DNA of 61,165 bases, the filler included. It is 4 parts of 4 records of this genome, joined end to end, with 100 filler letters (N's around TTAATTAATTAA, not from the genome) between each part and the next. Parts side by side here need not be neighbours in the genome. Positions count along the whole stretch, not along the records: positions 1 to 29,927 come from DRR723986_11140; 3 more parts are not named here. One strand, 5' to 3'. A program made the translations under genes and the position numbers. The notes beneath the pieces are model-generated. The model saw only the letters and a list, made by a program, of their open reading frames with translations, ran no database searches and was not told the origin of the DNA. Shown here in pieces: positions 6,531 to 22,626 of this stretch (positions are counted from its first letter, which is position 1; the number at the start of each line of letters is the position of its first letter).

Positions 6531-9017
6531 GTGCCGGAAAGGTACGCGATAGCCATTGTAGGCGCCGGGCCCGCGGGCCTCAGTGCGGCCGGTCGTGCGG
6601 CAGAATACGATCGGGAAAGTGGCGCCACGTCACCCAGCTACATCCTCCTCGAAGGTTTCGATACCTTCGCCAAGACCATCCAGAAGTACCAGAAAGGCAA
6701 GCACGTCATGGACGAGCCTGGCTTCTTGCAGCTGCGCAGTCCGGTGCCGTTCACGGCGGGTAAACGTGAGGAGATTCTTGGTGCCTGGCAGCAGAGCCTG
6801 GATGCCGGTATTCACATCCGCTACGGGGTTGAGGTCACAGCGATCCAGGGTGAACTCGGCAACTTCACCCTGAGTATCGGTGGTGGTGAGACCATCGAGG
6901 CGGAAAACATCGTCCTGTCCATCGGTACCCAGGGCAACCCACGCTACCTGGGCGTCGACGGTGACCGTGAGTCAGATTTTGTCCGCTATACCCTGGATGA
7001 CCCGGCGGACTTCAAGGGTGAGACCATTATGGTCGTTGGCGCCGGCGACGCCGCGATCGAGAACGCTATTGCCCTGGCCGATTACAACGCGGTGTACATC
7101 GTCAACCGGCGCAACGAATTCAGCCGGGCCAAGGATGGTAACTTGAATGCCGTTCTGGCGGCGATCAATGACAAGAGCAACCGGTTCTACTGTCGCTACG
7201 AGGCGTCGGTCAATCGCCTGGAATTGCCCAGCGAGCCGGGTGGCCTGGGCGCCATGGTGCTCAATACACCGTCAGGCGAGGAGCGTATTGAATGCCACCG
7301 GATTATTGCCCGCCTGGGCACGGTGCCACCGCGCAGCTTCGTCGAATCCTGTGGCATCGAGATCAGCGGTGACAGCGCCGATGCGGTGCCGGATGTCGAT
7401 CGGCATTACCAGAGTAACGTCCCCGGGCTATACATCATTGGCGCTCTGGGCGGTTATCCGCTGATCAAGCAGGCCATGAACCAGGGCTATGATGTCGTCG
7501 AGTTCATCAACGGCAGGGACACCAAGCCGGCGGATTACCCCCTGCTGCAAAGCCAGTTCTCGGGCCTGCCTTATGTGATGGATGCCGAGGATGTGCTCTC
7601 GTTGTACCAGAGCCGGGTGCCCATGTTCCGCCGGATGAACCCCCTCGCTTTCCGCGAACTGATCATCGAGAGCCGGATCATCGTCAGCCTGCCCCCGGCC
7701 GATATGGCCCATGCGCCACCGCCGGCTGACCGGTCGACCGCGTTTGTGCCCGCCGATGAGCCGGTGTACAGCCACGGTGAATTCAGCACCACCTTCTATA
7801 CCATTGTGGAAGGTGAGGTGCAGATGCAGCTCGAAGAAGATGGGCCATTGCATACCCTCAAGCCCGGCCAGTTTTTCGGCGAAATGAGCCTGATCTCCGG
7901 GCGCCCGCGCCAGGGTTCGGCGGTGGTCGGTCGCGATTGCATCCTGATCGAGACCCCGCGTCGGATCATGGTCAAGCTGATGAACTCCAATGAGCAGGTG
8001 CGCACCGGGATTGACCGGGTGTTCATCATGCGCGCCCTGCAGTCGGCGTTCCGGCCCACACTGGAGCTGGCCCAGCTGGCAGATATTGCCGGCCGAGTCG
8101 AGCCCTGCCAGTTCAAGGCAGGTGAAACCCTGTTTACCGAGGGCGAGGCGGGAGACTGCCTGCACCTGGTACGCAGTGGTACGGTGATCCTGTCTCGCGG
8201 CAGCGCTGACCTGGTGGTGGCTCAACAGCACTCCGGGGAGTTGGTCGGTCAGATGGCGCTGATGGGAGCACCCCTGAGGCGTGACACTGCCACTGCCGCG
8301 GTGCGCACCGAGACCCTGTTGATCAGGCAGCCCGAGTTCCTCGCCCTGGTCAACAGCCAGCCCGACCATATCGGTGTCTTGCAGGGACGCCTGACCGAGT
8401 TACTCAAGAAATCCAATACCATGGCCTCGCAGCCGGAAGCGGCCCGGGCCATCGGTTTCCTGATGGAGCAGGGCCTTGGGGAAGCGACCAATGCCCTGGT
8501 TATCGACGAAGCCCTGTGCGTCGGCTGTGACAATTGCGAGCGTGCCTGCGCCGAGACCCATGGGGGTATTTCCCGGCTTAACCGGGAGTCCGGGGCCTCC
8601 CTGGCTAATCTCCATGTGCCGATTTCCTGTCGTCATTGCGAACTGCCGCACTGCATGAAGGACTGCCCGCCGGATGCGATTCGCCGAGCCCCAAATGGTG
8701 AGGTTTTCATTACCGACAGCTGCATTGGCTGCGGCAACTGTGAGACCAACTGCCCCTACGATGCGATCAAGTTGAGCTATGCGGCACCACCCAAGCCAGG
8801 CCTGCTGTCCTGGCTGTTCCTGGGCCGCGGCCCCGGGCCGGGTGAGCCAGAGCACTTCCAACCCACCGCCGAGTCCAAGGACGTGGGCAAGAAGGCGGTC
8901 AAGTGCGATGCCTGTATGGGACAGGCTGGTGGCCCGGCCTGCGTTCGGGCCTGCCCCACCGGGGCGGCGATCAGGCTCTCCCCGGAACAATTTGTTGAAT
9001 TGGTGGAAGCGCGATGA
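6531..9017 (+). CDS. FAD/NAD(P)H oxidoreductase fused to two cyclic-nucleotide-binding domains and a 4x[4Fe-4S] domain
   Basis: GAGPAG and GAGDAA Rossmann motifs; FGEMSLISGRPR and VGQMALMGAPLRRDTATA cNMP cassettes; CVGCDNCERAC, CRHCELPHCMKDCP, CIGCGNCETNCP, CDAC...CVRACP; GTG start after a G-rich RBS. Confidence 0.88.
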   Translation: MPERYAIAIVGAGPAGLSAAGRAAEYDRESGATSPSYILLEGFDTFAKTIQKYQKGKHVMDEPGFLQLRSPVPFTAGKREEILGAWQQSLDAGIHIRYGVEVTAIQGELGNFTLSIGGGETIEAENIVLSIGTQGNPRYLGVDGDRESDFVRYTLDDPADFKGETIMVVGAGDAAIENAIALADYNAVYIVNRRNEFSRAKDGNLNAVLAAINDKSNRFYCRYEASVNRLELPSEPGGLGAMVLNTPSGEERIECHRIIARLGTVPPRSFVESCGIEISGDSADAVPDVDRHYQSNVPGLYIIGALGGYPLIKQAMNQGYDVVEFINGRDTKPADYPLLQSQFSGLPYVMDAEDVLSLYQSRVPMFRRMNPLAFRELIIESRIIVSLPPADMAHAPPPADRSTAFVPADEPVYSHGEFSTTFYTIVEGEVQMQLEEDGPLHTLKPGQFFGEMSLISGRPRQGSAVVGRDCILIETPRRIMVKLMNSNEQVRTGIDRVFIMRALQSAFRPTLELAQLADIAGRVEPCQFKAGETLFTEGEAGDCLHLVRSGTVILSRGSADLVVAQQHSGELVGQMALMGAPLRRDTATAAVRTETLLIRQPEFLALVNSQPDHIGVLQGRLTELLKKSNTMASQPEAARAIGFLMEQGLGEATNALVIDEALCVGCDNCERACAETHGGISRLNRESGASLANLHVPISCRHCELPHCMKDCPPDAIRRAPNGEVFITDSCIGCGNCETNCPYDAIKLSYAAPPKPGLLSWLFLGRGPGPGEPEHFQPTAESKDVGKKAVKCDACMGQAGGPACVRACPTGAAIRLSPEQFVELVEAR

Positions 9018-9898
9018 GCCTGCGCCAGACTGTGCTTGGCTGGAACCGCCATGCCTACCTCAAGTGGGGCGTGCTGGTCATCATTGTCAGTGCAGCGCTA
9101 TACATCAGCCAGTGGTGGAGTGCGAGCCAGCCGCCCAATGGCGGGACCTGGCAGGGCTATGTGCTGGGCACTGCCGGTGCCCTGCTGATTCTCTGGCTGT
9201 CACTGCTTGGGATCCGCAAGCGCAGCTACCGTTCCAACATGGGTACGGTGCAGGGCTGGACCTCGGCCCATGTCTATCTCGGCAGCGCGCTGCTGGTGAT
9301 TGCAACCCTGCACTGCGCCATGCAGTTCGGCTGGAATGTGCATACCCTGGCCTACGCTTTGATGTGCCTAGTCATCTTCTCCGGTTTCTACGGCATCTAC
9401 GTCTATGTTCACCTGCCTGAGCGTATGGCCGCCAACAGCGCGGAGAAAGACCGCGCCCGTTGGCTGGACGAGCTCGATGACCTGGACGCCAGCATCCGTG
9501 ACGTGGTGCAGCGCTGTGACGCCGAGTTACAAAGCATGGCCTTGTCGGCCCTCGAACTGACCCGGTTCGGTGGCTCGGCGTGGCACCAGCTGAGCGCCCG
9601 GGATTACTCGCGCCTGCAGCCGCCTGGTGGCGGCCGGCCGGTGGCCAACAAAGAACAGGCGGTAATATTGCAGACCCTTGCCGAGCGCATACCGAATGCG
9701 CGCAAACGTTCCGAGGCCGAAGTACTGAATGAGCTATTGGCGCTGTTCGGTCGCCGCCAGGTGATCCTGCACGTGCTGCGCAAGGACATCCAGCTCAAGG
9801 GGCTGGTCAAGGTCTGGCTGTATCTGCACATCCCGCTGACCCTGGCGCTGCTGGTCGCGCTGGTCATCCATATTCTCTCTGTCTTTATTTACTGGTAA
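9014..9898 (+). CDS. Inner-membrane protein, predicted di-heme b type
   Basis: Several TM helices; two H-x13-H pairs (HVYLGSALLVIATLH, HIPLTLALLVALVIH); ATGA overlap with upstream gene. Confidence 0.7.
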   Translation: MSLRQTVLGWNRHAYLKWGVLVIIVSAALYISQWWSASQPPNGGTWQGYVLGTAGALLILWLSLLGIRKRSYRSNMGTVQGWTSAHVYLGSALLVIATLHCAMQFGWNVHTLAYALMCLVIFSGFYGIYVYVHLPERMAANSAEKDRARWLDELDDLDASIRDVVQRCDAELQSMALSALELTRFGGSAWHQLSARDYSRLQPPGGGRPVANKEQAVILQTLAERIPNARKRSEAEVLNELLALFGRRQVILHVLRKDIQLKGLVKVWLYLHIPLTLALLVALVIHILSVFIYW

Positions 9899-9902
9899 CG
9901 CC

Positions 9903-11621
9903 GTGTATTTTCTCGTACGCAGACTGACCGGCAGGGGCGCCAGCGAAGCACTGGAAGCTGACTTCCAGGGTGAACAGCTGACCTTTGGCAGTGGTGGCAT
10001 GGTCGAACTGCCCGGGCTGGATGGCAGCCTTCAGCTGGAAAAATCCGGCGATGGTGCCGCCCGCTACAGCGCGCGCAAGCTAGCCCTGGAGTTTGAGGGC
10101 AAGGCGACCAAGTCCGGTACCCTGGCGGTGGGCGACAGCCTGCAGTTGCCGGGATATACCCTGCAACTCATTCCCGCTCCGGCGGGCTTCGACCTGGCAG
10201 TGCAGCTGGCTCCGGCGGAAGGTCGTGCAAGGATCGACCACGGTCGCCTGACCCTGGCGGAGAGTGCATTCAGTATCCGCAGGGCCAGCTGGGTGTTGGC
10301 CCTGCTGGTCCTGATCCTGTTCCTGATCATACCGGCGGCTGGCCTGTTGCGGCCGGAGCTGGCGGGTGTATTGCGTGATTCGCCACTGCCGGATGATGGT
10401 CTGTGGTCCAGCGGCCCCCTGGCATCGGCCCACCGTACGGCAGGTGTGGCAGAAGACTGTGGCGCCTGCCACAGCACGCCGTTTGTGATGGTCAAAGACC
10501 AGGCCTGCCTCGACTGCCACCGCGAGACCCGGGAGCATGTCAGTCTCGAGGTTCACGATCCGGAATTGTTTACTGGCGAGCGCTGTGCCTCCTGCCACCG
10601 GGAGCACAATGAGCCCGCCTGGGTAGTTAACCGGGACAAGGGTCTATGCGTGGACTGCCATGCGGACACAGGCCCCTGGCAAGTGCCGGGGGCGAGCGGG
10701 ATGAGCCCGGTACATGCCTTTACCGGGTCCGGGCACCCGGATTTCCGCCTCGCCATGTTGCTGCCCCAGGGCCCGGGCGCTGCCCACGGCTGGGAAGTCA
10801 CCCGCCAGTCGCGCGGGGACGTGCCGGCGCAGGAGCAATCCAATCTCAAGTTTGACCATGAAGTGCACCTCGATAGCGACAAGGTGCAGCACGAGGGTTC
10901 CGGCGAGGCCCTGGCCTGCGCCAGCTGTCACACGCTGGCCGATGATGGCGAGCATTTCGAGCCAGTGACCATGGATGCGCATTGCCGCAGCTGCCACACG
11001 CTCAATTTCGACATCTTTGAACCGGACCTGGAACTGCCGCACGGTGACCTGAGGGCAGCGATCGTGGCCATGGAAGCGCATTTCATTCGCGAGTTCACTG
11101 ATCCGGCCTTGCGCCAGGAAAGGGCCGGCCAGAAGCCACGGCGCGTACCGGGTAAGCGCGAGGCGGCGGCTGCCTGTGAAGGCTCCGGCCTGGATTGTGG
11201 TCGGGCAGAGGCACTCAAGGAAGCACAGTACCAGTTTGCGGAAACCGGCTGTATTACCTGCCATGAAGTGACGGAAACCGGGCTGACCGATATTTCCGAC
11301 CGCTGGTTTGTGCAACCGGTGCGGGTGACGACGGACTGGTATCCGTTCAGCAGCTTTGACCACAGCGCCCACCTGTCACTGGCGTCCGACAACGAGGCCG
11401 AGGTCTGCGTTGCCTGCCATGAGGCACCGACATCCAGTGTTGCGACCGACGTCCTGATACCCGGTCAGGCCAACTGCCTGGGCTGTCACGATGAAAACAA
11501 GGGCAACTCGGCGGTGGACTGCGTGGGTTGCCATGACTTCCACCAGGCAACTGGCGGATTGTCCACACTTGCCCGTGGTGCCGTCATAGACCGACCCGCG
11601 ATGGACTTGCAGGGGGATTGA
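9903..11621 (+). CDS. Membrane-anchored decaheme cytochrome c with N-terminal cytoplasmic domain
   Basis: Ten CxxCH motifs after an internal TM helix (WVLALLVLILFLII); ~125-aa N-terminal domain precedes the TM. Confidence 0.85.
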   Translation: MYFLVRRLTGRGASEALEADFQGEQLTFGSGGMVELPGLDGSLQLEKSGDGAARYSARKLALEFEGKATKSGTLAVGDSLQLPGYTLQLIPAPAGFDLAVQLAPAEGRARIDHGRLTLAESAFSIRRASWVLALLVLILFLIIPAAGLLRPELAGVLRDSPLPDDGLWSSGPLASAHRTAGVAEDCGACHSTPFVMVKDQACLDCHRETREHVSLEVHDPELFTGERCASCHREHNEPAWVVNRDKGLCVDCHADTGPWQVPGASGMSPVHAFTGSGHPDFRLAMLLPQGPGAAHGWEVTRQSRGDVPAQEQSNLKFDHEVHLDSDKVQHEGSGEALACASCHTLADDGEHFEPVTMDAHCRSCHTLNFDIFEPDLELPHGDLRAAIVAMEAHFIREFTDPALRQERAGQKPRRVPGKREAAAACEGSGLDCGRAEALKEAQYQFAETGCITCHEVTETGLTDISDRWFVQPVRVTTDWYPFSSFDHSAHLSLASDNEAEVCVACHEAPTSSVATDVLIPGQANCLGCHDENKGNSAVDCVGCHDFHQATGGLSTLARGAVIDRPAMDLQGD

Positions 11622-11624
11622 GCG

Positions 11625-13598
11625 ATGGCTTGGAAACTTACAGGTGCGATTCTGGCCCTGGTACTGACAGCCTGCAGCGGCGGTGGGGGTGGCGGTAGCA
11701 GCGCCGGTACCTCCCCGGATGTCGACCCTGCGAATGACCCCTGCACAGGCCAGTGTGCCGGCCCGGATTCCCGACTGACGGTAGGCGATGTAAAGCAGGT
11801 GCTAGCTCGAGCGGTACACCAGGCTGAAGCGCTTGGGGAGACCGCCACCATTGCCGTGGTGGACCGGGTAGGTAACGTGCTGGCGGTGTACCGCATGGCA
11901 GGCAAGGTCAAGGATGTGGCCATCAGCACCACCTTCCCGACTACCATCACCACCGGCCTGGAGGGTGTTGTCTTGCCAGCGGCCATTGGGGGTGACGCCC
12001 TGGCGGCCATCGCCAAGGCGGTGACCGGCGCGTATCTCTCCAGCGAAGGTAATGCCTTCACCACCCGCACCGCGAACCAGATCGTGCAGGAACACTTCAA
12101 TCCCGGCGAGCAGAACCAGCCCGGTGGTCCCCTGTTCGGTGTTCAGTTCAGCCAGCTCGCCTGCTCGGACTTCACTCTGGGCGATGCTGGCGTTGGACCC
12201 GGCCCGCAGCGCTCACCATTGGGACTTTCCGCTGATCCCGGTGGCCTGCCATTGTTTAAGAACGGTACCCCCGTGGGCGGGGTCGGGGTGATTGCCGATG
12301 GTCAGTACTCGATCGACAAGAATATCCTCAACAGTGATCGCGATATTGACGAGATGATCGCTGTCGCGGCGACCTATGACTATGCCGCGCCCAGAGATCG
12401 GCGCGCCGACCGGATCACGGTGGAGGGCAAGACCTTCCGCTTCAGCGATGTGGATTTTGATGACCTGCCGGCGGACCCGGCCCAGGCCGCGGATTTTGAC
12501 TCTCTCGTGGATGCGGGCCAGCTGCTGCCGGTGAACGGTTACACGGATGGTAGTTTGCGCGCCGGTACCGCGTTTGGCCAGCCGGACTCCGGTATAGTTC
12601 CTGCCACCGGCTTTAGCGGCCTCGATGCTTTCATGTTCGTCGATGCCGCGGGCAATAACCGCTTTCCGCCTCGCAAGGGCACTGATGCTGACAAGCTCAA
12701 CGGCGCGCCGCTCTCGGCGGCGGAAGTACGCCAGCTACTGAATTCCGCAATCGCTATCGCCAATCGGTCGCGCGCCCAGATTCGGCGGCCCCTGGGCAGT
12801 AAGGCCCGGGTGACGGTCTCCATCGTGGACAGCCAGGGTACTATTATCGGGATGTTGCGTACCCGTGACGCGCCGGTGTTTGGCGCCGATGTATCCCTGC
12901 AGAAGGCGCGTACTGCGACCCTGTTCTCGTCGCGTGATGCCGCGGACTTCTTCCGCGGAATCACCAGCCCGGCCCAATACCTCAACCCCGACCTGACGCC
13001 CAAGGCGCAGGTGTTCATGGCTTCTTACGTCGATGCCGCGCAGAACTTTATCGGCCCCCAGGCATTGACCGACGGCACGGCCTTTTCCGACCGGGCCGGC
13101 GGCAACCTGTCGCGCCCGTTCTACCCGGACGGTATCCGGGGCAACGATAACGGCCCGTTCAGTAAATCCTTTCGCAATAATGAGTGGAGCGTTTTCTCCT
13201 CCGGTCTGCAGCTGGATCTGGTATTCAACCGGATCATCGAGCACATCTTGTTTGCGGCTGGCGCCGCGCCCGCGGATGTACCACCCAATTGCGCCGAGTC
13301 GGATGCTCCCAGGCTGGCCAACGGTAGCCAGATTTTCCCTGGCAGTGTGCCGATTTACCGCGGCGATGAACTGGTCGGTGGGATCGGGGTGTCCGGCGAT
13401 GGTATCGACCAGGACGATATGATCAGTTTCCTCGGAGTGCACGAGGCAGGCCTTGCCCTGAACGGAGCGATCAACAACGCGCCGCCTGAACTGCGTGCCG
13501 ACACACTCAAGCCCCAGGGCACGCGATTGCGCTACATACAGTGTCCGCAGACGCCGTACCTGGACAGTAACGAACAGCAAGTGTGCGACGGGAAGTGA
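11625..13598 (+). CDS. Lipoprotein with two GlcG/HbpS (heme-binding) domains
   Basis: Lipobox LTAC then Gly/Ser linker; two copies of IAVVD.../KAxT.../GGxPx..VGGxGVxxDG pattern. Confidence 0.78.
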   Translation: MAWKLTGAILALVLTACSGGGGGGSSAGTSPDVDPANDPCTGQCAGPDSRLTVGDVKQVLARAVHQAEALGETATIAVVDRVGNVLAVYRMAGKVKDVAISTTFPTTITTGLEGVVLPAAIGGDALAAIAKAVTGAYLSSEGNAFTTRTANQIVQEHFNPGEQNQPGGPLFGVQFSQLACSDFTLGDAGVGPGPQRSPLGLSADPGGLPLFKNGTPVGGVGVIADGQYSIDKNILNSDRDIDEMIAVAATYDYAAPRDRRADRITVEGKTFRFSDVDFDDLPADPAQAADFDSLVDAGQLLPVNGYTDGSLRAGTAFGQPDSGIVPATGFSGLDAFMFVDAAGNNRFPPRKGTDADKLNGAPLSAAEVRQLLNSAIAIANRSRAQIRRPLGSKARVTVSIVDSQGTIIGMLRTRDAPVFGADVSLQKARTATLFSSRDAADFFRGITSPAQYLNPDLTPKAQVFMASYVDAAQNFIGPQALTDGTAFSDRAGGNLSRPFYPDGIRGNDNGPFSKSFRNNEWSVFSSGLQLDLVFNRIIEHILFAAGAAPADVPPNCAESDAPRLANGSQIFPGSVPIYRGDELVGGIGVSGDGIDQDDMISFLGVHEAGLALNGAINNAPPELRADTLKPQGTRLRYIQCPQTPYLDSNEQQVCDGK

Positions 13599-13603: not shown

Positions 13604-15493
13604 ATGGACAGGAGAGAGCTCGTGAAAAATCCGATTCTGTACCCTGCCTTGCTGGCGACGTTGCTGATGGTACCGCTCGTCGCGCCGGCACAGGATGAAG
13701 CGGCTGCCCAGGCAGCAATGGAAGCTGACGAGGCCTGTGATGATCTGCAGACCCGCGACCGCAGCCGCAGCAGTCGCCGCCGGACCCGGGCTGCGAACCG
13801 GGATTGCGAGTACCGCGAGACGGTAGTCGACCAGGAGACCGGTGAAGTCCTCCGCGAGACCCCGGTCGCCGCCGCCCCGCGCACCGTTCTGCCGCGGCGC
13901 TATTCACCGATTCCGCGACCGACAGCCGAGCAGTATGTGGAGCATGTGGCGATACCCGACCGCTGGCGCATCGTCGACAGCCTGGGCTACGAGGACAACT
14001 GGTGGAACCCGTATGACCAGAACACGATCAAGGGCGACAAACCCATCCACGATGACTGGTTCTTCAACGTAACCGCCATCTCAGACACCGTGCTGGAATT
14101 GCGTGAGGTGCCAACCCCGGTGGGTGTTCAGTCCACGGATCGAGCCGGCACGCTGGATGTACTGGGTGGCACCGAACAGGCGACGTTCAACCAGAACCTG
14201 GCGGTTGAACTGGTCTACTACAAGGGTGACACGGTCTTCAAGCCACCGGACTGGGAATACCGATTTACCCCGGTGTTCAACTACAACTACACCGAAATCG
14301 ACGAGGTGACCGGGATCAATGCCGATCCGGCGGATGGCATTACCCGCAATGACAACCATGTGGGAATCCAGGCGGCCTTTGTCGACAAGCACTTGCGCAA
14401 CGTCTCCGACCGCTACGACTTCGACAGTATCCGGGTTGGGATCCAGCCTTTTTCCAGTGATTTCCGCGGCTTCCTGTTTCAGGACGCGCCCTTCGGTGTG
14501 CGCCTGTTCGGCAACCGTGATAACAATCGCTACCAGTACAACCTGGCCTGGTTCCGGCGCATGGAGAAGGACACCAATTCGGGCCTCAACGACATCAGTG
14601 AAGACCTGCGCGAAGATGATGTGTTCGTGGCCAATCTGTATTGGCAGGACCAGCCGGCACTGGGTTTCTTCTCCCAGTTCACCGTGCTGTACAACCGCAA
14701 TCGCGAGACGGAAATCTTTTACGACACCAATGACTTCATTGCCCGACCGGCATCTATCGGTGAGGAGCGGTTGCGCGAGTATGACGCCTATTACCTTGGC
14801 TACAACGGCGACGGCCATTTCGGTCGGCTGAACCTGACGACCTCGTTCTATGTCGCACTTGGTGAAGAGGAAGATGCCGTATTCAGCGGTGAGTCGTCGG
14901 ATATCGAGGCGTACTTCTTTGCGGTCGAGCCGTCGATGGATTTCGATTGGATTCGGGCGCGCGCCTCCTTCCTTTACGGCTCAGGTGACGACGATCCCTT
15001 CGACGACAAGAGCCAGGGCTTCGACGCCATTTTCGAGAACCCGCAGTTTGCCGGTGCCGATACCAGCTACTGGATTCGCCAGGGCGTACCGTTGATCGGT
15101 GGTGGCCGGGTGGCCCTGTCGCAGCGCAACGGGGTGCTCAACTCGCTGCGTTCGTCCAAGGAACATGGTCAGTCCAACTTCACCAACCCGGGTATCTTCC
15201 TGTTGGGTGGCGGTGTCGACCTGGACCTGTTGCCGGAACTGAGGCTGTCGTTTAACGCCAACTACCTTGCCTTTGCCGAAACCGAGGTACTGGAAGTGGC
15301 ACGGCAGCAGGATAACGTCGACAAGGAGATCGGCCTCGACCTGTCGGCCGCCGTAATCTGGCGCCCGTTCATGAGCCAGAACGTGGTGGTTAGGGTGTCC
15401 TACGCCCAGCTGCTGGGTGGCGATGGCTTTGAGGATCTTTACGGGGATGAAGACCCGTACTCCCTGCTGTGCAACCTGATACTGACCTTCTGA
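13604..15493 (+). CDS. Putative outer-membrane beta-barrel protein
   Basis: Signal peptide (...PLVAPA/QD), aromatic/Asn/Asp-rich amphipathic strands, C-terminal Phe (LILTF). Confidence 0.72.
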   Translation: MDRRELVKNPILYPALLATLLMVPLVAPAQDEAAAQAAMEADEACDDLQTRDRSRSSRRRTRAANRDCEYRETVVDQETGEVLRETPVAAAPRTVLPRRYSPIPRPTAEQYVEHVAIPDRWRIVDSLGYEDNWWNPYDQNTIKGDKPIHDDWFFNVTAISDTVLELREVPTPVGVQSTDRAGTLDVLGGTEQATFNQNLAVELVYYKGDTVFKPPDWEYRFTPVFNYNYTEIDEVTGINADPADGITRNDNHVGIQAAFVDKHLRNVSDRYDFDSIRVGIQPFSSDFRGFLFQDAPFGVRLFGNRDNNRYQYNLAWFRRMEKDTNSGLNDISEDLREDDVFVANLYWQDQPALGFFSQFTVLYNRNRETEIFYDTNDFIARPASIGEERLREYDAYYLGYNGDGHFGRLNLTTSFYVALGEEEDAVFSGESSDIEAYFFAVEPSMDFDWIRARASFLYGSGDDDPFDDKSQGFDAIFENPQFAGADTSYWIRQGVPLIGGGRVALSQRNGVLNSLRSSKEHGQSNFTNPGIFLLGGGVDLDLLPELRLSFNANYLAFAETEVLEVARQQDNVDKEIGLDLSAAVIWRPFMSQNVVVRVSYAQLLGGDGFEDLYGDEDPYSLLCNLILTF

Positions 15494-15502: not shown

Positions 15503-18500
15503 ATGAGATTTCGCGACAGTAAACAGCCCCGGAGAACAGGCCTCGCGGTCTGGGGGGCGGCACTCGGACTGGTCTTGCTCGCCGTTCCCGTCAGCTACAC
15601 CCTGAGTGCTTCCGGATACAATAAGGTCGAGCGTAATCACGTGACTGCGCCCAACGCGCCTGCCAGCCAGAGCAGCGCCCAGATGGATGCCAAGTCGGAA
15701 GGTTGCGAGAGCTGCCACACGGCCACGGACCAGAAAACCATGCACGCCAACCCGGCGGTGAAGCTGGGCTGTACCGATTGTCATGGCGGCAACGCCGGCG
15801 TGTTCCGACCCGAGGGCACCGACAGTATTGCCCAGCAGGCTTATCTCGGCGCCATGGAAGAGGCGCATGTGCTGCCGGAGTATCCGGATGACTGGCATTT
15901 CCCGTCCAGCGCCAACCCCGAGCAGTCCTATACCCTGCTCAACCGCGAGAGCCCGGAATTTGTCCGGTTCGTAAACCCGTCTGATTACCGAATTGCCCGA
16001 GAGGCCTGCGGCGCCTGTCACCTGCCGATCATCGAAGCCGCCGAGCGCAGCCTGATGGCGACTTCCGCCATGCTCTGGGGTGGTGCCGCCTACAATAACG
16101 GTATCCTGCCGTTCAAGCGTTACATCCTGGGTGAGGCCTATACCCGCGAGGGTGAGCCCGCCTCAATCGTGGCGCCGCTCAAGCCCACCGCCGAGATGAC
16201 CGAGCAAGCCAGCATCCTGCCCCAGCTTTATCCACTGCCGGCCTGGGAAACAGTCAAGCCGGGCGATATCTTCCGAGTCTTCGAGCGCGGTGGCCGTAAT
16301 ATCAGCAACCTGTTCCCGGAAACCGGGCTGCCCAATGCCCTCGGGCAGTTGCAGCGTCTGGAGGAACCGGGCAGACCCGATATCCGCCAGTCGAACCGGG
16401 GCCCCGGCACCGGTGGCCGTATTTCGGTGCCGCTGATCAATATCACCAAGACCCGCCTGAACGATCCCCATACCTGGTTTATGGGCACCAATGACCAGCC
16501 CGGGGACTACCGCAGTTCCGGCTGTGCTTCCTGCCACGTGGTATACGCCAATGATCGCGATCCCAAGCATTCCGGTCAGTACGCGCAGTTTGGCCATACC
16601 GGGAAATCCCAGAGCGCTGACCCAACCATTCCGCGGGACCGCGAGGGGCATCCGCTCAAGCATGAATTCACCCGGGCGATCCCCACGAGCCAGTGCATGA
16701 TCTGTCACATGCACCAGCCGAATATGTTCGTGAACTCCTACCTCGGTTACACGATGTGGGACTACGAGTCGGACGCACCGTCGATGTGGCCGGAGAAGCA
16801 GGTTTACCCGACCCACGAGGAGCGCCGCAAGGTCTACGATCGCAACCCCGAGGGCGCGGCACCGCGCGGCAAATGGGCGGATATTGAGTTCCTCAAGGCC
16901 GTATCGGAAATGAACCCGACCTTGAAGGATACCCAGTTCGCCGATTACCACGGCCATGGCTGGAACTTCCGCGCGATTTTCAAACGCGACCGCAAGGGCA
17001 ACTTGCTGGACGCCGAAGGCGATATCGTTAGCGATGAGGACCCGGACAAGTTCGACAAAGCGGTGCACATGGCATCGATCCATATGGATAAGGGCATGCA
17101 CTGCGTCGATTGCCACTACGCCCAGGATAACCATGGCAACGGACATATCTACGGCGAGGTCGCAGCCGCTGTGGAGATCGACTGCAAGGACTGTCACGGC
17201 TCGATCAACGCCTACCCGAACCTGTTTACCTCGGGTCCGGCGGCCCTGGAAGGCGGCACCGATTTGGGTGCGATCCGCAACCCGGATGGTCGCCTGCGCT
17301 TCGAGTGGGTCGACAATAAGCTGATGCAGCGCTCGGTGCTGGACCCGGAGCTGGAGTGGGAAGTCAGCATGGTCAAGGACTCGGTGGACCAGGATCACGC
17401 TGACTACAACGCGAAAGCCGCCCGCGCCAAGCTAATGAGCTCGGACACTGCCAAGCAGGACTGGGGTCAGGAGGTCGCCGCCAGCGGCAGCCTCGCACAC
17501 GACGACGAGGAGATGGAGTGCTATACCTGCCACACCTCCTGGACCACGAGCTGTGGCGGTTGTCACCTGCCTATCCAGGCCAACGAGAAGACCGACCGAC
17601 ACCACTACGAGGGTGGCGAGACGCGTAACTACGCGACCTACAATCCGCAGGTCGCCCGCGACCAGATGTTCCTGCTCGGCCGTCGTGAGACTGCCAAGGG
17701 CGGTAAGATTGCGCCGGTCCGTTCCACCTCCGCGCTGGTCCTGTCATCCACCAATGCGAATCGGGAGAAGATTTATATCCAGCAGCCGCCGATCGCGGCG
17801 AGCGGGTACAGCTCCCAGGCCTTTAACCCGCACTTCCCGCACACCGCGCGCAAAACTGAGACCAAGCAGTGCGAGGATTGCCACCTCAGTAAGAACAACG
17901 ACAACAATGCCATAATGGCGCAGTTGTTGATGCACGGCACCGACTTTGCCGACTTCCTGGGCTTTATTGCCTATGTGGGAAGTGAAGAGCATGTCACCGG
18001 CGTGCAGGTCACTGAGTGGGAAGAGCCGCAGGCGGTGATCGGCAGCTACCTGCAGCGCTATGCCTATCCCGATTATTTCCGGCAGCATGTGGATGCAGGC
18101 AGAATTCTGGCTCACGGCTATCCGCACGGTTCCGGGCCGGTTGGCTGTGTGCAGATGCGTGGCGAGTACCTGTATGTCGCCGAGGGCAGCAAGGGCATGC
18201 AGGCCTACGATATTGCCAGCATCGCCAACAAGGGCGTTTCCCAGCGGATAATCACTGCGCCCTTCAGCCCGCTGGGGCACGATACGCGGATTGAAAGCAG
18301 CAACGCCACCTGCGTGGTGCTGCCAACTACCCAGCCCATCCATCCCTCGCGCAACGAGGGTGACCTGATGCGCAAGGTGAATCTCGAGCAGCCTTTCCAC
18401 CCTCTGTACGAGTACGCCTATATTACCGATGCCGAGGAAGGCCTTATCCTGACCAGCCTCGACACCTTCATGGATGGGGAACCGCGCAACAATTTCCTGG

Positions 18501-19252
18501 AGCGGGCGCTGACCTGGAACGAGAACGGTGTGCTCAATGGTGCCCGGCATATGGCCATTGGGGGCTACTATGCCTATGTCATCGCCGATGCCGGCCTGGT
18601 CATACTCAATATTGATCAGCCGCTGGCGCCGAAGGTTGAGGCCGTCCTGGCCCTGAACAACGGCCACTCCGTGGCGCTGCAGTTCCGCTACCTGTTTGTG
18701 ACCGACGCCGACGGGCTTAAGGTAGTCGATATCACCCGGCCCGCCGCCCCGCGGCTGGTTGAGGGCAATACCATTCCCTTGCAGCAGGCGCGGCGCATGC
18801 ACCTGGCCAGGACCTACGCCTATGTCGCGGCCGGTTCCCAGGGCATGGCCATTGTCGATATTGAAAATCCGGAGCAGCTGAAGCTGGTGCAGACCTTCGA
18901 CACGGGGCTGGTGGACAGTCACGACGTGACCGTGGCGAGCACCAACGCCTCACTGTTCGCCTACGTGGCGGATGGCAAAGGCGGGCTCAAGGTGATCCAG
19001 CTCACGTCGCCCTCCAGTCAGCCGAAGTTTTACGGCTTCAGCCCCGAGCCTCAGCCAGAGTTGATTGCCAGCTACCCGACGGCGTCTCCCGCGCTGTCAC
19101 TGTCCCGGCCGCTGGAGCGGGACCGCGGTGTGGATGAAACAGGCGGTCAGGTGGCGGTGTTCGGCCGGGTGGGTTCACGGCCGCTGAACAAGGAAGAAAT
19201 GGAATCCCTGTATCTCGATAAAGACGGTAAGCCATGGTACGTGGAAAACTGA
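15503..19252 (+). CDS. Large exported decaheme cytochrome c with C-terminal LVIVD-like repeat (beta-propeller) region
   Basis: Signal peptide; ten CxxCH motifs; C-terminal repeats YLYVAEGSKG, YAYVIADAGLVILNI, YLFVTDADGLKVVDI, YAYVAAGSQGMAIVDI, FAYVADGKGGLKVI. Confidence 0.87.
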   Translation: MRFRDSKQPRRTGLAVWGAALGLVLLAVPVSYTLSASGYNKVERNHVTAPNAPASQSSAQMDAKSEGCESCHTATDQKTMHANPAVKLGCTDCHGGNAGVFRPEGTDSIAQQAYLGAMEEAHVLPEYPDDWHFPSSANPEQSYTLLNRESPEFVRFVNPSDYRIAREACGACHLPIIEAAERSLMATSAMLWGGAAYNNGILPFKRYILGEAYTREGEPASIVAPLKPTAEMTEQASILPQLYPLPAWETVKPGDIFRVFERGGRNISNLFPETGLPNALGQLQRLEEPGRPDIRQSNRGPGTGGRISVPLINITKTRLNDPHTWFMGTNDQPGDYRSSGCASCHVVYANDRDPKHSGQYAQFGHTGKSQSADPTIPRDREGHPLKHEFTRAIPTSQCMICHMHQPNMFVNSYLGYTMWDYESDAPSMWPEKQVYPTHEERRKVYDRNPEGAAPRGKWADIEFLKAVSEMNPTLKDTQFADYHGHGWNFRAIFKRDRKGNLLDAEGDIVSDEDPDKFDKAVHMASIHMDKGMHCVDCHYAQDNHGNGHIYGEVAAAVEIDCKDCHGSINAYPNLFTSGPAALEGGTDLGAIRNPDGRLRFEWVDNKLMQRSVLDPELEWEVSMVKDSVDQDHADYNAKAARAKLMSSDTAKQDWGQEVAASGSLAHDDEEMECYTCHTSWTTSCGGCHLPIQANEKTDRHHYEGGETRNYATYNPQVARDQMFLLGRRETAKGGKIAPVRSTSALVLSSTNANREKIYIQQPPIAASGYSSQAFNPHFPHTARKTETKQCEDCHLSKNNDNNAIMAQLLMHGTDFADFLGFIAYVGSEEHVTGVQVTEWEEPQAVIGSYLQRYAYPDYFRQHVDAGRILAHGYPHGSGPVGCVQMRGEYLYVAEGSKGMQAYDIASIANKGVSQRIITAPFSPLGHDTRIESSNATCVVLPTTQPIHPSRNEGDLMRKVNLEQPFHPLYEYAYITDAEEGLILTSLDTFMDGEPRNNFLERALTWNENGVLNGARHMAIGGYYAYVIADAGLVILNIDQPLAPKVEAVLALNNGHSVALQFRYLFVTDADGLKVVDITRPAAPRLVEGNTIPLQQARRMHLARTYAYVAAGSQGMAIVDIENPEQLKLVQTFDTGLVDSHDVTVASTNASLFAYVADGKGGLKVIQLTSPSSQPKFYGFSPEPQPELIASYPTASPALSLSRPLERDRGVDETGGQVAVFGRVGSRPLNKEEMESLYLDKDGKPWYVEN

Positions 19253-20520
19253 TAGGTCTTGTATTACTGCTGCTTGGCGCTGTGTCGGCGTCAGGCCAGC
19301 CCTTGCCTGAAACGGGTGCTAACCCGCATGAAGGCGTGGCGAGCTGTGCCGCCAGCGTCTGTCATGGCAAGATCAGCGAGGATCCGTCGTCGACCGTATG
19401 GCTCAACGAGTACCGGATCTGGCTGCGCCAGGACTACCATTCAAGAGCCTACAAGACCTTGCAGACCGCCCAATCCAAGGCCATAGCCAGCAAACTCGGC
19501 TTGCCCGCGGCACACACGGCGAAGATCTGTCTGGACTGCCATGCGGACAATGTGGCGGTGGAATCGCGCGGGCGACGATTCCAGATTTCCGACGGGGTGG
19601 GTTGCGAGGCCTGTCACGGCGGTTCGGGCCAGTGGCTGGAGTCCCACGCTGAACAGGGCACGTCCCACGCCGATAACCTGGCTGCGGGTATGTACCCTAC
19701 CGAGGATCCCCTGGCCCGGGCGCGACTGTGTCTCTCCTGCCACCTCGGCACCAAGGATAAGTTCGCCACCCACCAGATCATGGGCGCGGGACATCCCCGG
19801 CTGGCCTTTGAACTTGAAACTTTCACTGTAAACCAGCCACGGCACTACGACGTGGATGCGGACTACCGCGAGCGCAAGCCCGCGATCAGCTCGGTGAACA
19901 TGTGGCTGGCGGGACTTGCGGTCACCGGTATGCAGTCGCTTGAGTTGTTGCAGGAAGCGTGGTTTACCAAGCCAAGCCTGGTGCCGGAACTGTCTTTTTA
20001 CCAGTGCCACGCCTGTCATCACCCGATGAACGACCTGCGCTGGGAGCCCGAGCCGGACGGCCTCAAGCCCGGCACCGCAAGGCTGAATGATGGCAGCCTG
20101 GTAGTGCTGGCCGTGGTCCTGGATATCCTCAACCCCGGAGACGGTCAGGCGATCGAACAGGGCCTGCGAAAATTGCACCAGGCCTCGCAGCGGGATCGCG
20201 ACGCGGTGGTCAGCGCTGCCCGTGAGTTGCAGGGCCGCCTGGAGCCCCTGGTCAGTGCGCTGGCGGGCAACAGCTATGGCCCCGATGCCATGCGGAGCCT
20301 GCGCCAGGGCTTGCTTGAAAGCGCTGCATCCGGTCGTTTCCGGCACTTCACGTCCGCTGAGCAGGTGTTCCTGGCGGTGGAGACCCTCAGCCTGTCGCTT
20401 GGCGATAACGAACGCTACACCATCCAGTTGGATGCCTGGTTCAAGACCGTGGAGGAGGATGATCCCTTCGTGCCCAAACAGTTTGCCGTGCTGGCCAGAA
20501 AAATGAGGGATGCGCTTTGA
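19234..20520 (+). CDS. Exported multiheme cytochrome c (c554-like N terminus)
   Basis: Signal peptide; CLDCH, CEACH, CLSCH, CHACH plus atypical CAASVCH; overlaps upstream stop. Confidence 0.82.
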   Translation: MVRGKLIGLVLLLLGAVSASGQPLPETGANPHEGVASCAASVCHGKISEDPSSTVWLNEYRIWLRQDYHSRAYKTLQTAQSKAIASKLGLPAAHTAKICLDCHADNVAVESRGRRFQISDGVGCEACHGGSGQWLESHAEQGTSHADNLAAGMYPTEDPLARARLCLSCHLGTKDKFATHQIMGAGHPRLAFELETFTVNQPRHYDVDADYRERKPAISSVNMWLAGLAVTGMQSLELLQEAWFTKPSLVPELSFYQCHACHHPMNDLRWEPEPDGLKPGTARLNDGSLVVLAVVLDILNPGDGQAIEQGLRKLHQASQRDRDAVVSAARELQGRLEPLVSALAGNSYGPDAMRSLRQGLLESAASGRFRHFTSAEQVFLAVETLSLSLGDNERYTIQLDAWFKTVEEDDPFVPKQFAVLARKMRDAL

Positions 20521-21572
20521 ACGGATCCGGGGCTTTCCCTGAGGCGGTCGCCGCTACTGATGTCGGCCGGCGCCGACACAATGAGGATGCCTATCTGGTC
20601 CATCCGGATGTTGGCCTGCTGGTTGTCGCGGACGGGGTTGGTGGTCACGACGCCGGGGAAGTGGCCAGCGCCATAACTTGCGAAACGATCGTGGAAGAGG
20701 TGCAGCGCGGAGCATCGCTGCAGGACGCAGTGCGAGCCGCGAACCTCGCAGTCATGCATGCCGTTGACGCGGGTAGGGGACGCGAGGGTATGGCCTCCAC
20801 GGTGGTGGCAGTGCAGTGCAAAGGTGCGGAGTTTGAGGTCGCCTGGGTTGGTGACAGCCGCGCCTACCTGTGGGATGGCAGCCTGAAGCTGATCACCCGG
20901 GATCACTCGCTGATGGAAACCCTGTTGTCCCGCGGTGAGATCACCCGCGAGGAGGCGCGCCAGCATCCGCAGCGCAATGTGATCGTTCAGGCCATCGGCC
21001 TGCAGGCGGAGAACGCCCTGCGCGTGGACAGTAACAGCGGTACCTTGCAGGAGGGTCAGATACTGCTGCTGTGCAGTGACGGGATGAGCGATATTCTGGA
21101 GAACGAGACGATTGTCGATATCCTGACGGGTGAGGGCGATCTTCAGGAACGCTGCCAGCGCCTGGTGAGTCGCTCCATCGAGGAAGGTGGCAAGGATAAT
21201 TCGACGGTTGTGCTGGTTGCCGGTACAGTGCCGGCGGGTGGCGAAGTCCGTGAGCCAGACGCTGTATGGCGCTACGATCCCGCCACCGGTGAAACCATGG
21301 GCTTGCTGGAGGTTGCGCCTGTCGCGCCCGCAGCACCGGCGATCAAGAAAGTCGGCCCCAAGGTGGATGCGGAGGCCGGGGATTCGCCACAAACGACGCA
21401 GATGATGTCAATTGCCGAGGTAGAGCGTGCGCTGGCCGCCAAGGGTCAGCTTGGCGGTGACGACAGGCGTTCCGCTGGAGGAAAAGCGGGTAAATGGCTT
21501 GTAATCGGTGCGCTGGTGTTGGCTGCCGCCGCAGCCGCCGGGTATTTTGTCAGTGTGGGCGGTGTAAATTGA
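20517..21572 (+). CDS. PP2C-family Ser/Thr protein phosphatase with C-terminal TM anchor
   Basis: GRRRHNEDA, VADGVGGH, VGDSRAY, LCSDG, GGKDN; TTGA overlap with upstream gene. Confidence 0.92.
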   Translation: MNGSGAFPEAVAATDVGRRRHNEDAYLVHPDVGLLVVADGVGGHDAGEVASAITCETIVEEVQRGASLQDAVRAANLAVMHAVDAGRGREGMASTVVAVQCKGAEFEVAWVGDSRAYLWDGSLKLITRDHSLMETLLSRGEITREEARQHPQRNVIVQAIGLQAENALRVDSNSGTLQEGQILLLCSDGMSDILENETIVDILTGEGDLQERCQRLVSRSIEEGGKDNSTVVLVAGTVPAGGEVREPDAVWRYDPATGETMGLLEVAPVAPAAPAIKKVGPKVDAEAGDSPQTTQMMSIAEVERALAAKGQLGGDDRRSAGGKAGKWLVIGALVLAAAAAAGYFVSVGGVN

Positions 21573-21594
21573 ATTTGAAAGGCGTGGGTGAATC

Positions 21595-22626
21595 ATGACT
21601 ACTTCGCAGGCGGAATTTAACGCGGAACTGGTGGCAGGTGACGGTAGCAGGCATGCCCTGGTTGGGGAGATGCATGTCGGGCGTTCGCAGGACTGCGAGA
21701 TTCCGATCGATGACGCCAAGGTTTCGCGTAAACACGCTCTGATCAGCGTTGCCGAGGAACGGGTCAATGTTGAGGACCTGGGCTCGGCTAACGGTACCCT
21801 CGTTAACGGCACGCGCATTAATGGCAAAACAGAACTGCATAACGGCGACACCTTGCAGTTCGAGAAGCACCAGTTCACCGTAGAAATTACCGGTCAGGGG
21901 GAGCCCGAGGTCGACCCGGATGCCACGGTGGTTGATGTCGGTGGCACGGACGATGAAGATGCAACTATCGTCAGCGGCTTTGCCGAGGCGCCACCGCCAG
22001 CTCCCGAACCGCCACCGGCTCCCGAACCGCCACCAGCGCCGTCACCTGATCTGCCCGGTGCCTGGGTCGACGATCCGAGCATGGGCGAGCATACGCAGGT
22101 AATGGATTTCAGCGCTGGCGCATCAGCCGCGCCTGCCAGGAGCGTGCCCCGATTGTCGGACCACGCCCATCTGATTGTACTGTCCGCCGCCGGGGATGCA
22201 CTGGAGGCCAGCGAACTTGAGCCTGCCGGCAAGGGCGAACCCGATATCTGGGAGATTGGCCGCGATCCGGCCTGTGAGGTCTGCCTGACCGAGCCCAGCG
22301 TCTCCGGTCGACACGCCCAACTGGTTCACGACAGCGGTCGCTGGCGCCTGGTTAACCTGGTTTCCGCTAACGGAATCTTCGTCAATGGCGAGAAGCGGCT
22401 GAGCGCATTCCTTTCGGATGGTGATGAAATCCGGCTTGGCAATGCCAACCTCGTATTTCACGCGCCGGTTGGCGCTGCGGCGGCGGCTCCTGCTTCGGCG
22501 GCTCCCAAGGCAGCGAAAAGCAGCGACGCTGGTGACTCAGGCGGCAATAGTAAGCTGATAATGGGTGTTGTGCTTGCCGTTGCCGTCATAGCGGTCGCAG
22601 CGGTAGCGGGATTCCTGCTGCTGTAG
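21595..22626 (+). CDS. Double FHA-domain protein with Pro-rich linker and C-terminal TM
   Basis: Two GR...SRxHA/SGRHA...NG FHA motif sets; PPPAPE repeats; hydrophobic C terminus. Confidence 0.9.
   Translation: MTTSQAEFNAELVAGDGSRHALVGEMHVGRSQDCEIPIDDAKVSRKHALISVAEERVNVEDLGSANGTLVNGTRINGKTELHNGDTLQFEKHQFTVEITGQGEPEVDPDATVVDVGGTDDEDATIVSGFAEAPPPAPEPPPAPEPPPAPSPDLPGAWVDDPSMGEHTQVMDFSAGASAAPARSVPRLSDHAHLIVLSAAGDALEASELEPAGKGEPDIWEIGRDPACEVCLTEPSVSGRHAQLVHDSGRWRLVNLVSANGIFVNGEKRLSAFLSDGDEIRLGNANLVFHAPVGAAAAAPASAAPKAAKSSDAGDSGGNSKLIMGVVLAVAVIAVAAVAGFLLL

Follow-up and report, generated by a model that had tools for sequence, protein, structure and literature searches.

Here we present a gene cluster from a marine Halieaceae bacterium whose first seven genes, g1 to g7 (Table 1), we read as one conserved two-module system that exports electrons from the cytoplasm. 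The cluster lies in a window of 61,165 nucleotides (nt), the whole stretch of DNA that was analysed, which joins parts of four contigs end to end; g1 to g9 fall entirely within the first of these contigs (DRR723986_11140, positions 1 to 29,927). In our reading a decahaem cytochrome fused to a beta-propeller, g6, is placed at the periplasmic face of the outer membrane, and for the reading as a whole we regard the chances as about even. The evidence gives good support to the export of electrons over the inner membrane, and NAD(P)H rather than quinol is a plausible input, to judge from the encoded domains. Set beside published descriptions, the cluster appears to be a variant of the class described as PCC4 and as ptd. 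New here are the fused input protein g1, a natural g1-g2 fusion, an FHA domain on a decahaem cytochrome, the conserved fifth haem motif of g7, an AlgE-like barrel and a different outer module.

The listing of open reading frames (ORFs) in the window contains nine ORFs on the plus strand between 6453 and 22626. With the gene starts proposed in the first-pass annotation, a description of this DNA made from its letters alone, these genes are spaced by -4, 4, 3, 5, 9, -19, -4 and 22 nt, which bears out the earlier description of nine tightly packed same-strand genes at 6531-22626. The domain assignments made at that stage were each confirmed by Pfam and NCBIfam. The haem inventory also agrees with what had been claimed: direct motif counts give 10, 10 and 4 CxxCH in g3, g6 and g7, a sum of 24, plus one CX4CH (CAASVCH), and CxxCH is absent from the other 33 ORFs of the window, which total 13,945 aa. 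The proposed start of g1 at 6531 is preferred over that of the longest ORF; g1 homologues begin at the Rossmann motif. For g5, the start at 13604 was likewise judged better than that of the longest ORF.

Table 1. Genes of the cluster and adjoining features, in window coordinates
Feature	Description	Coordinates	Strand	Remarks
g1	Cytoplasmic NAD(P)H/FAD oxidoreductase with two cNMP-binding domains and a HycB-like 4x[4Fe-4S] part	6531..9017	+	828 aa
g2	Inner-membrane protein with five transmembrane segments, predicted di-haem b, ferric-reductase-like	9014..9898	+	
g3	Degenerate cytoplasmic FHA-like domain (1-~125), transmembrane anchor (131-149), periplasmic decahaem part	9903..11621	+	
g4	Lipoprotein with GlcG/HbpS-like (DUF336) domains	11625..13598	+	
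g5	Outer-membrane 18-strand AlgE-like beta-barrel with ~130-aa N-terminal periplasmic extension	13604..15493	+	
g6	Secreted decahaem cytochrome c (~1-820) with 7-blade LVIVD beta-propeller (~820-1249)	15503..19252	+	
g7	Periplasmic cytochrome c554-like protein, 4 CxxCH and 1 CX4CH	19234..20520	+	
g8	PP2C Ser/Thr phosphatase with C-terminal transmembrane anchor	20517..21572	+	Accessory, lineage-limited
g9	Double FHA protein with C-terminal transmembrane anchor	21595..22626	+	Accessory
Kinase	Hanks-type Ser/Thr kinase, convergent with g9	22686..24080	-	Pkinase 5.3e-52; outside the coordinates of the first-pass annotation
Promoter-like site	TTGGCA-16-TATATT ahead of g1	6446..6473	+	10/12 consensus positions

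The cluster recurs as a unit. One genome per species was scanned with a g5 profile, and the best 80 of at least 599 loci were kept; gene order in these 80 loci was read from BLASTP of the window proteins against all of their ORFs. Presence was counted anywhere in a locus, and only for loci with sufficient flank. On this basis g1 is found in 47 of 51 loci, g2 in 58 of 62, g3 in 61 of 65, g4 in 73 of 73, g6 in 69 of 69 and g7 in 43 of 69, while g8 (14/64) and g9 (14/56) are much rarer. The order g1-g2-g3-g4-g5-g6 is colinear in nearly all of the 80 loci, and g1 or g7 is displaced or on the opposite strand in a few of them (L048, L074, L065, L018 and L038). Haem numbers are fixed as well. All 67 g6 homologues have 10 CxxCH and all 45 g7 homologues have four; 56 of 59 full-length g3 homologues have 10, and those of L021, L029 and L074 have nine. 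Given the presence counts, the colinear order and the fixed haem numbers, g1 to g7 appear to constitute the conserved core, with g4-g5-g6 as its tightest trio. Since 80 loci, spread over many families, repeat this gene order, the cluster goes beyond chance, and co-conservation, which the first-pass annotation had named as a check on its proposal, is upheld.

The 80 loci come from many gammaproteobacterial families, including Halieaceae, Alcanivoracaceae, Steroidobacteraceae, Colwelliaceae and Rhodanobacteraceae, and from the order Lysobacterales, together with some Alphaproteobacteria, one member of the Methylophilaceae and a few metagenome-assembled genomes (MAGs) with odd taxon labels. The closest g5 relatives, at 85-87% identity, belong to the Halieaceae genera Kineobactrum, Haliea and Halioglobus. 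The barrel family itself is large: at least 7999 relatives at E<=0.001 were obtained from a 90% database (7999 of the 8000 candidates scored), a 50%-identity representative library holds 1550 relatives, 439 of them at E<=1e-30, and relatives occur in at least 599 species genomes. Three oddly labelled MAGs, L059 (Flavobacterium), L032 (Patescibacteria) and L028 (Myxococcales), carry the full cluster with a barrel 54-61% identical to that of the window, and sit among gammaproteobacterial rows in the g6 tree. Binning contamination or gene transfer could explain their labels.

The input protein g1 combines three kinds of domain in a single chain. Pfam finds Pyr_redox_2 (8.5e-25), cyclic nucleoside monophosphate (cNMP) binding domains (cNMP_binding, PF00027, 9.5e-32, two stretches) and Fer4 families, and PF13247 is matched at 3.3e-8 (34.1 bits against a cut-off of 26.2). 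Its sequence matches in the PDB are HycB (7z0s_B, 9.3e-18), the regulatory subunit of protein kinase A (3of1_A, 5e-14) and thioredoxin reductase (TrxR) or ferredoxin-NADP reductase (FNR) proteins. The flavin domain is of the TrxR/FNR type without the redox CxxC, and a signal peptide was sought in g1 and none was seen. In an alignment of 30 sequences the GxGxxG motif, the stretch GAGDAAIEN and the 16 Cys of a four-cluster ferredoxin domain are invariant. The flavin, cNMP and Fe-S parts are all retained in 46 of 46 full-length homologues, most of which have a canonical cNMP phosphate-binding cassette, FGE...GRRR[ST]AT. Split proteins of 400-454 aa with only the cNMP and Fe-S parts, a PtdE-like form, also exist, some of them on contigs of 90 kb to 2.5 Mb.

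Directly downstream, and overlapping g1 by 4 nt, g2 encodes a protein with five transmembrane segments and the motifs W82x3H86x13H100, SGFYG (123-127) and W268x3H272x13H286. Across 32 sequences no variation is seen at W82, H86, H100, S123, G124, G127, H272 or H286, and very little at W268. By the positive-inside rule, the N-terminus and the long loop 131-265 are cytoplasmic. This topology would put H86 and H272 near the cytoplasmic face and H100 and H286 near the periplasmic face, the geometry of a two-haem relay through the membrane. The nearest ESM Atlas clusters are automatically named 'ferric reductase like' (score 0.97), which we take as a lead only, and the sole Pfam match of g2 is Ni_hydr_CYTB (1.2e-3), whose score of 19.1 bits falls short of the cut-off of 30.1.

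A search for longer proteins containing g2 returned seven matches. One of them, P0395, comes from a Nitrospinales MAG and has 1053 aa; its residues 1-778 align to g1 at 41% identity and its residues 820-1053 to g2 at 32%, with both His pairs covered. As P0395 carries g1 and g2 in one chain, it supports NAD(P)H input. Two further fusions are partial and may be artefacts: P0392 joins the cNMP and Fe-S parts to a portion of g2, and P0391 joins a portion of g2 to g3 (34% identity). The suggestion that the pathway starts from NAD(P)H is thus plausible from the TrxR-type flavoprotein, the 16-Cys ferredoxin domain, the 4-nt overlap and the Nitrospinales fusion. Little stands out upstream of g1: Rfam gave 0 matches when riboswitches were sought there, the upstream regions of four Halieaceae are not conserved and yield no common operator, and the promoter-like site is weak, positional evidence, with three such matches seen in the window against 5.1 expected in shuffled sequence.

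Two periplasmic cytochromes accompany this input module. Besides its 10 CxxCH, g3 has 10 further invariant His, as expected for ten bis-His haems, and it begins with a cytoplasmic domain of ~130 aa that the first-pass annotation did not mention. Pfam FHA is found in 21 of 32 g3 homologues (best 4e-13), and in 19 of 28 in a second, overlapping set; it was not detected by Pfam in the window g3 or its nearest relatives. Profile-profile comparison with hhalign nevertheless finds the two kinds of N-terminus homologous (window clade against FHA-positive N-termini, probability 99.6, E 5.4e-25), and the window N-terminus therefore appears to be a degenerate FHA domain that lacks the GR...S..H signature. 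The other cytochrome, g7, matches Cytochrome_C554 (2.8e-11). Its CX4CH motif is kept in all 45 homologues, so g7 is probably a pentahaem protein, and five further invariant non-motif His accompany its five haem motifs. Against the PDB, by sequence and by profile, g3, g6 and g7 gave only weak fragments of c7, NrfB and c554.

The remaining core genes make up the outer module. The lipoprotein g4 matches HbpS-like domains (2.2e-20, three stretches) and has the lipobox LTAC; a loose lipobox pattern is present in 61 of 73 homologues. Weak PDB matches are to EfgA/GlcG (6bws, 1.2e-4) and to 4nkp, a putative extracellular haem-binding protein. For g5, which has a signal peptide and a C-terminal Phe, no Pfam family was found at E<=10. 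Whether 13604-15493 encodes a beta-barrel had been set beforehand as a refuting test, and the AlphaFold2 model, built on a 34-sequence alignment (predicted local distance difference test, pLDDT, 80.0; predicted template modelling score, pTM, 0.75), is a barrel over residues ~159-635 in which 18 strands were counted. A long internal loop (467-537) with short strands resembles a channel plug. Foldseek ranks AlgE first (3rbh_A, E 9.4e-17, template modelling score 0.66-0.70 on the target); the top 17 ranks are all AlgE, followed by porins of 16-18 strands, and MtrB is absent from the 50 matches listed. Many g5 relatives are 150-600 aa longer at the N-terminus. Among 17 of these that were scanned, five (P0122, P0129, P0131, P0164 and P0175) have SPOR, SH3/AMIN, HEAT or fn3 domains there, pointing to a variable extension that lies in the periplasm or faces the peptidoglycan, and none has an HbpS/GlcG domain that would indicate a g4-g5 fusion.

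The most conserved protein of the cluster is g6, with a mean column identity of 59% over 39 sequences. It has a Sec-type signal without a lipobox, an LVIVD match (1.3e-19) and, for its 10 haems, 13 invariant non-motif His. In the structural model (mean pLDDT 66.8) the propeller is confident; by Foldseek it resembles only generic 7-blade propellers, among them the S-layer YVTN protein 1l0q of an archaeon and BT2095, a surface lipoprotein of Bacteroides. For g6, the ESM Atlas yielded nothing beyond uncharacterised multihaem clusters. The haem part matches the NCBIfam model ExtM (NF040943) at 6.4e-20, with 71 bits against a cut-off of 800, and ExtO and ExtN at ~1e-6.

The PCC4 clusters of He et al. 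2017 (PMC5566968) combine a porin and a conserved protein of the inner membrane with three cytochromes, all periplasmic, that have 4, 5 and 10 haem motifs, and occur in marine Zeta-, Gamma- and Alphaproteobacteria and in Planctomycetes. According to that paper the inner-membrane protein has five transmembrane helices, with SGxxG on helix 4 and Wx3Hx13H on helices 3 and 5, motifs that the authors connect with the ferric-reductase domains that hold two b haems. Upstream of its gene, subgroup II has an Fe-S gene (pfam13247). All of the PCC4 cytochromes are predicted there to be periplasmic, and in the model of He et al. the membrane protein exchanges electrons with quinone during Fe(II) oxidation. 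A preprint on ptdABCDEFG (bioRxiv 10.1101/2023.11.21.568154) states that the function of these genes is completely unknown; the genes are transcribed in oxygen-deficient zones. Its pentahaem PtdA has a C-terminal beta-sandwich and an NrfA COG. We infer that ptd and PCC4 are the same, because the 4/5/10 haems and the Fe-S and membrane proteins match between the parts of the two accounts available to us.

Compared with these descriptions, rather than with Ptd or PCC4 sequences themselves, the likeness is closest at the inner membrane. There g2 shows exactly the PCC4 signature, with five transmembrane segments, SGxxG and Wx3Hx13H twice, and the PF13247 protein g1 is encoded directly upstream of it, with cNMP domains as in PtdE. 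The counterparts of PtdC and PtdE would be fused as g1, whose N-terminal Pyr_redox_2 domain corresponds to the FAD/NAD(P) oxidoreductase PtdC, and PtdF would correspond to g2, the decahaem PtdG to g3 and PtdD, tetrahaem by CxxCH count, to g7. A porin (PtdB) and marine Gamma- and Alphaproteobacterial hosts are shared too. The outer half departs from both descriptions. CxxCH counts are 10, 10 and 4 (plus one CX4CH) instead of 4, 5 and 10; the decahaem-propeller g6 stands in place of the pentahaem PtdA, and a double GlcG/HbpS lipoprotein, g4, is added. PDB sequence and profile searches with the window cytochromes matched neither NrfA nor cytochrome c552. The gene order differs as well, and an FHA domain on the decahaem and genes for PP2C and FHA proteins go unmentioned in the portions of the published descriptions available to us.

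The first-pass annotation had called the system undescribed, and this holds in part: as far as the sources at hand go, the inner-membrane half and the overall logic are in print as PCC4/ptd, whereas the outer half differs from both. Nor is there more than a partial match to a characterised system, which had been named as grounds for refutation, since PCC4/ptd is itself uncharacterised in those sources and the window variant differs from it. Our literature search found this variant described nowhere, the nearest accounts being the two just cited, and found no description of a decahaem cytochrome with an FHA domain. A second paper that names PCC4 does no more than cite it. PCC3 was rejected as a match for its much larger haem counts (PMC5566968, in the part available), and the uet cluster of Tenderiales was rejected as a different system.

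With MtrCAB, MtoAB and PioAB the cluster shares multihaem c-type cytochromes beside an outer-membrane barrel, and a periplasmic decahaem. The barrel of MtrB has 26 strands, whereas g5 has 18 and is AlgE-like, not MtrB-like. Against the MtrA/DmsE family (TIGR03508), g3 and g7 score 23.2 and 22.9 bits, with a cut-off of 192.2. As input we predict an NAD(P)H flavoprotein together with a di-haem b protein, in place of a CymA/NapC-type quinol dehydrogenase. MtrC and OmcA carry a lipobox, and the window cluster is without a lipoprotein surface cytochrome. The 18-strand fold is shared with AlgE (3rbh), and some g5 relatives are named 'alginate export family' in UniRef; yet g5 is only 10-12% identical to AlgE, has no Pfam Alginate_exp match and has cytochromes for neighbours. 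An alginate exporter was rejected as an identity for g5, with no alginate synthesis or export family among the other ORFs of the window. The only named families matching the haem part of g6 are ExtM, ExtN (NF040967) and ExtO (NF040968) of Geobacter, but ExtM has 599 aa and no propeller, and g6 is far below its cut-off.

The inner module is also reminiscent of the NOX/FRE proteins and of E. coli MsrQ with the flavin reductase Fre, in which, in the portions of the cited papers available to us, two b haems receive their electrons from an NAD(P)H-flavin unit in the cytoplasm (PMC5676040, PMC11031084, PMC12525009). Like NOX/FRE proteins, g2 has two His pairs, each 13 apart, on two helices, so that haem binding is predicted, and electrons would cross the inner membrane to an acceptor outside the cytoplasm, as we propose for g1-g2. 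The differences are that g2 has five transmembrane segments and no PF01794 match, that g1 is a TrxR-type dehydrogenase with a four-cluster ferredoxin and two cNMP domains in between, and that the predicted acceptor is a decahaem cytochrome c and not O2, Fe(III) or, as for MsrQ, MsrP.

From these parts a path for the electrons can be proposed. The FAD of g1 would oxidise cytoplasmic NAD(P)H, and electrons would then run along the four [4Fe-4S] clusters of g1 to g2, arriving at the haem b that H86 and H272 would hold on the cytoplasmic side. The other haem b, at H100 and H286, would pass them to the membrane-anchored decahaem g3, completing the step across the inner membrane, so that g1-g2-g3 would work like NOX or Fre-MsrQ lengthened by c-type haems. 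The probable pentahaem g7 would relay electrons over the periplasm to an outer module made of the g4 lipoprotein, the g5 barrel and the decahaem-propeller g6, with g6 as putative terminal reductase. We lean towards g6 at the inner face of the outer membrane because the 18-strand AlgE-like barrel and its internal loop resemble a substrate channel; g5 may admit or release a substrate, or hold a short segment, rather than form an MtrB-like sheath around a cytochrome. The terminal substrate may be an Fe(III) chelate, Mn oxide, O2 or a nitrogen oxide. Regulation would enter through g1, by its cNMP domains, and through g3, by its FHA-type tail; in the window lineage the PP2C phosphatase, the double-FHA protein and the kinase would add to it. 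Outward flow from NAD(P)H is downhill. The continuous trans-envelope path of the first-pass annotation survives in that its parts are laid out from cytoplasm to outer membrane and are co-conserved; the crossing of the outer membrane was overstated, the barrel being AlgE-like.

A number of observations weigh against this reading. At the input end, g2 has no PF01794 match in Pfam at E<=10, and the g1-g2 fusion is one MAG protein that could be an artefact of assembly or gene calling. The window g1 and its near relatives read GRPRQGSA in place of the canonical GRRR[ST]AT, and in the second domain GE has become GQ. Because these binding cassettes (window 7800-8500) are non-canonical, cNMP binding by the window g1 is uncertain; of the second-messenger control claimed earlier, the two cNMP domains stand, and its operation in the window host is in doubt. 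At the outer end, the haem domain of g6 is modelled poorly (pLDDT mostly below 60), and PDB sequence, profile and fold searches found no solved structure that matches it, which is why a terminal-reductase role is put forward for g6 only as a proposal. LVIVD propellers are typical of surface proteins (Pfam), and this would favour a position of g6 outside the cell. Our literature search found no experiment on PCC4/ptd or on this cluster. It is also unclear why hosts that are aerobes would spend NAD(P)H on export.

That position of g6 is what a true conduit across the outer membrane would call for, with g6 (or g4) exposed at the surface, electrons crossing through the g5 barrel with a haem-bearing segment, and an acceptor that is either O2 or a solid or chelate outside the cell (Fe/Mn oxide, humics, an electrode). 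The porin-plus-multihaem gene logic is common to Mtr, Pcc, PCC3/4 and ptd clusters as far as their descriptions were available (PMC5566968; ptd preprint), g4, g5 and g6 always occur together, and the fold matches of the g6 propeller include the surface proteins 1l0q and BT2095. The barrel speaks a different language: its 18 strands are nearest AlgE and substrate porins, with no MtrB among the matches listed, and its internal loop 467-537 is plug-like. Moreover, g6 lacks the lipobox of MtrC and OmcA, and the prediction of He et al. puts every cytochrome of PCC4 in the periplasm. We therefore hold such a conduit to be possible but somewhat doubtful, and continue to favour g6 at the periplasmic face.

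The direction of flow and the unity of the cluster bear on the choice as well. Electrons might instead be taken up: a donor in the periplasm or outside the cell, for instance Fe(II) or Mn(II), would be oxidised, and electrons would run inward to g2 and the quinone pool, which is the model of He et al. for PCC3 and PCC4, clusters with the same inner-membrane protein signature that, in the part of the paper available, occur in Fe(II) oxidisers and a Mn-linked Hyphomicrobium (PMC5566968). Multihaem wires are reversible in principle. A quinone-reducing chain, however, would leave no role for the NAD(P)H/FAD-FeS protein beside g2 (47/51 loci) or for the g1-g2 fusion, and reduction of NAD(P)+ by Fe(II) would be uphill. 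Most of the loci are from groups of heterotrophs, such as Halieaceae, Colwelliaceae and Lysobacterales, that are not known iron oxidisers, and uptake appears improbable to us. We give even less weight to two separate functions that merely travel together, in which g1-g3 would supply the periplasm with electrons in the manner of MsrQ, g4-g6 would serve uptake or sensing at the outer membrane through a GlcG lipoprotein that binds haem, and PP2C, FHA and kinase would form an unrelated envelope signalling unit. Such a split would fit L024 and L075, which have g4-g5-g6 without g1-g3 within 9-10 kb, L048 and L074, where g1 lies downstream of g7 and away from g2, the presence of g8 and g9 in only a fifth of loci, and the position of the kinase on the opposite strand beside an OmpA-family gene. 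It sits badly with the colinearity of g1-g6 in the great majority of loci from many families, with window gaps of 3-9 nt or overlaps, with the FHA domain carried by g3 itself in most homologues, and with the presence of decahaem, pentahaem and decahaem proteins in one cluster, an obvious relay.

The signalling genes deserve separate treatment from the core. In the window a PP2C phosphatase, an FHA reader and a Ser/Thr kinase are encoded together, with one transmembrane segment each: residues 329-347 in g8 (NF033484, 216.5 bits against a cut-off of 230; PP2C_2, 3.1e-13), 325-343 in g9 (FHA, 1e-40, two stretches) and ~296-320 in the kinase, which also has an outer domain of ~140 aa. The kinase is likely the partner of g8 and g9; a homologue lies at the same place downstream of the cluster in L001, again with an OmpA-family gene. 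Directly after g7, g8 is found in 15 loci (L001-L006, L009, L010, L012-L014, L017, L019, L022 and L041), and in L029 the order is g7-g9-g8. In a FastTree phylogeny of g6 (69 rows) the 16 PP2C-bearing rows all fall in one half of 30 rows, and 15 of them in a group of 19 rows with support 93. From this concentration of 15 of 16 rows in one group, the PP2C/FHA pair appears to be an accessory acquired mainly in one lineage, and the earlier inclusion of PP2C and the double FHA protein among the parts of the system was not sustained. The phospho-Thr link proposed with them is real for the family, through the FHA domain of g3 homologues. The non-canonical cNMP cassette, GRPRxxxA, is present in 14 loci, nine of which have g8, whereas none of 29 loci with a canonical cassette has it. 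Shared descent, rather than a functional swap of regulators, may account for this association, which is not independent evidence because the g6 tree puts the PP2C loci mostly in one group.

Many hosts of the cluster are abundant aerobic marine heterotrophs. If our reading is true, NAD(P)H and not quinol is the source of the electrons that leave the cell, a NOX-like di-haem protein is their way out, and electron export becomes separable from respiration and subject to signalling control. It would also bear on extracellular superoxide and iron reduction by aerobic marine bacteria and on the role of the ptd genes; the system is widespread, and it suggests a quinone-independent, NOX-like form of electron export. 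A more specific version, which we think rather unlikely, casts the cluster as a bacterial 'NOX extended by cytochromes c' that is driven by NAD(P)H and gated by a second messenger and phospho-Thr. With it, aerobic Gammaproteobacteria of sea and soil would carry out a reduction at the outer membrane or past it, whether of Fe(III) chelates as a means of acquiring iron, of Mn oxides, or of O2 with superoxide as the product. Such a route would bypass the quinone pool and would not serve anaerobic respiration. Cultured carriers, namely Parahaliea mediterranea DSM 21924 (L003), Sediminihaliea albiluteola (L002), Colwellia (L053) and Thalassotalea (L064), make these proposals directly testable.

The surroundings of the cluster contain several further features. 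Just upstream of radA and the cluster, window 1819-5032 has a DnaB helicase gene beside an ORF for a lambda-P-like replication protein, and an opposite-strand ORF with three stretches of DnaT DNA-binding domain; this region may be a phage-derived replication module. Downstream, 24223-29927 holds an OmpA-family gene on the minus strand and then a two-partner secretion (TPS) pair, whose transporter, of the ShlB/FhaC type, spans 25296-27050 and whose exoprotein, with a TPS domain, runs from 27102 and is truncated by the contig end. The four contigs are joined by spacers at 29928-30027, 43830-43929 and 49981-50080, each 100 nt of N with TTAATTAATTAA mid-spacer, and the TpsA-like ORF from 27102 extends into the first of them. 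The joins truncate other genes as well, leaving a polA-like ORF without its 3' part and a MiaB-like ORF without its 5' part. Between ~23 kb and 44 kb the G+C content of the window drops to 0.47-0.59. On the minus strand at 50593-56157, a 1,854-aa protein carries eight RTX nonapeptide stretches and a C-terminal Hint domain.

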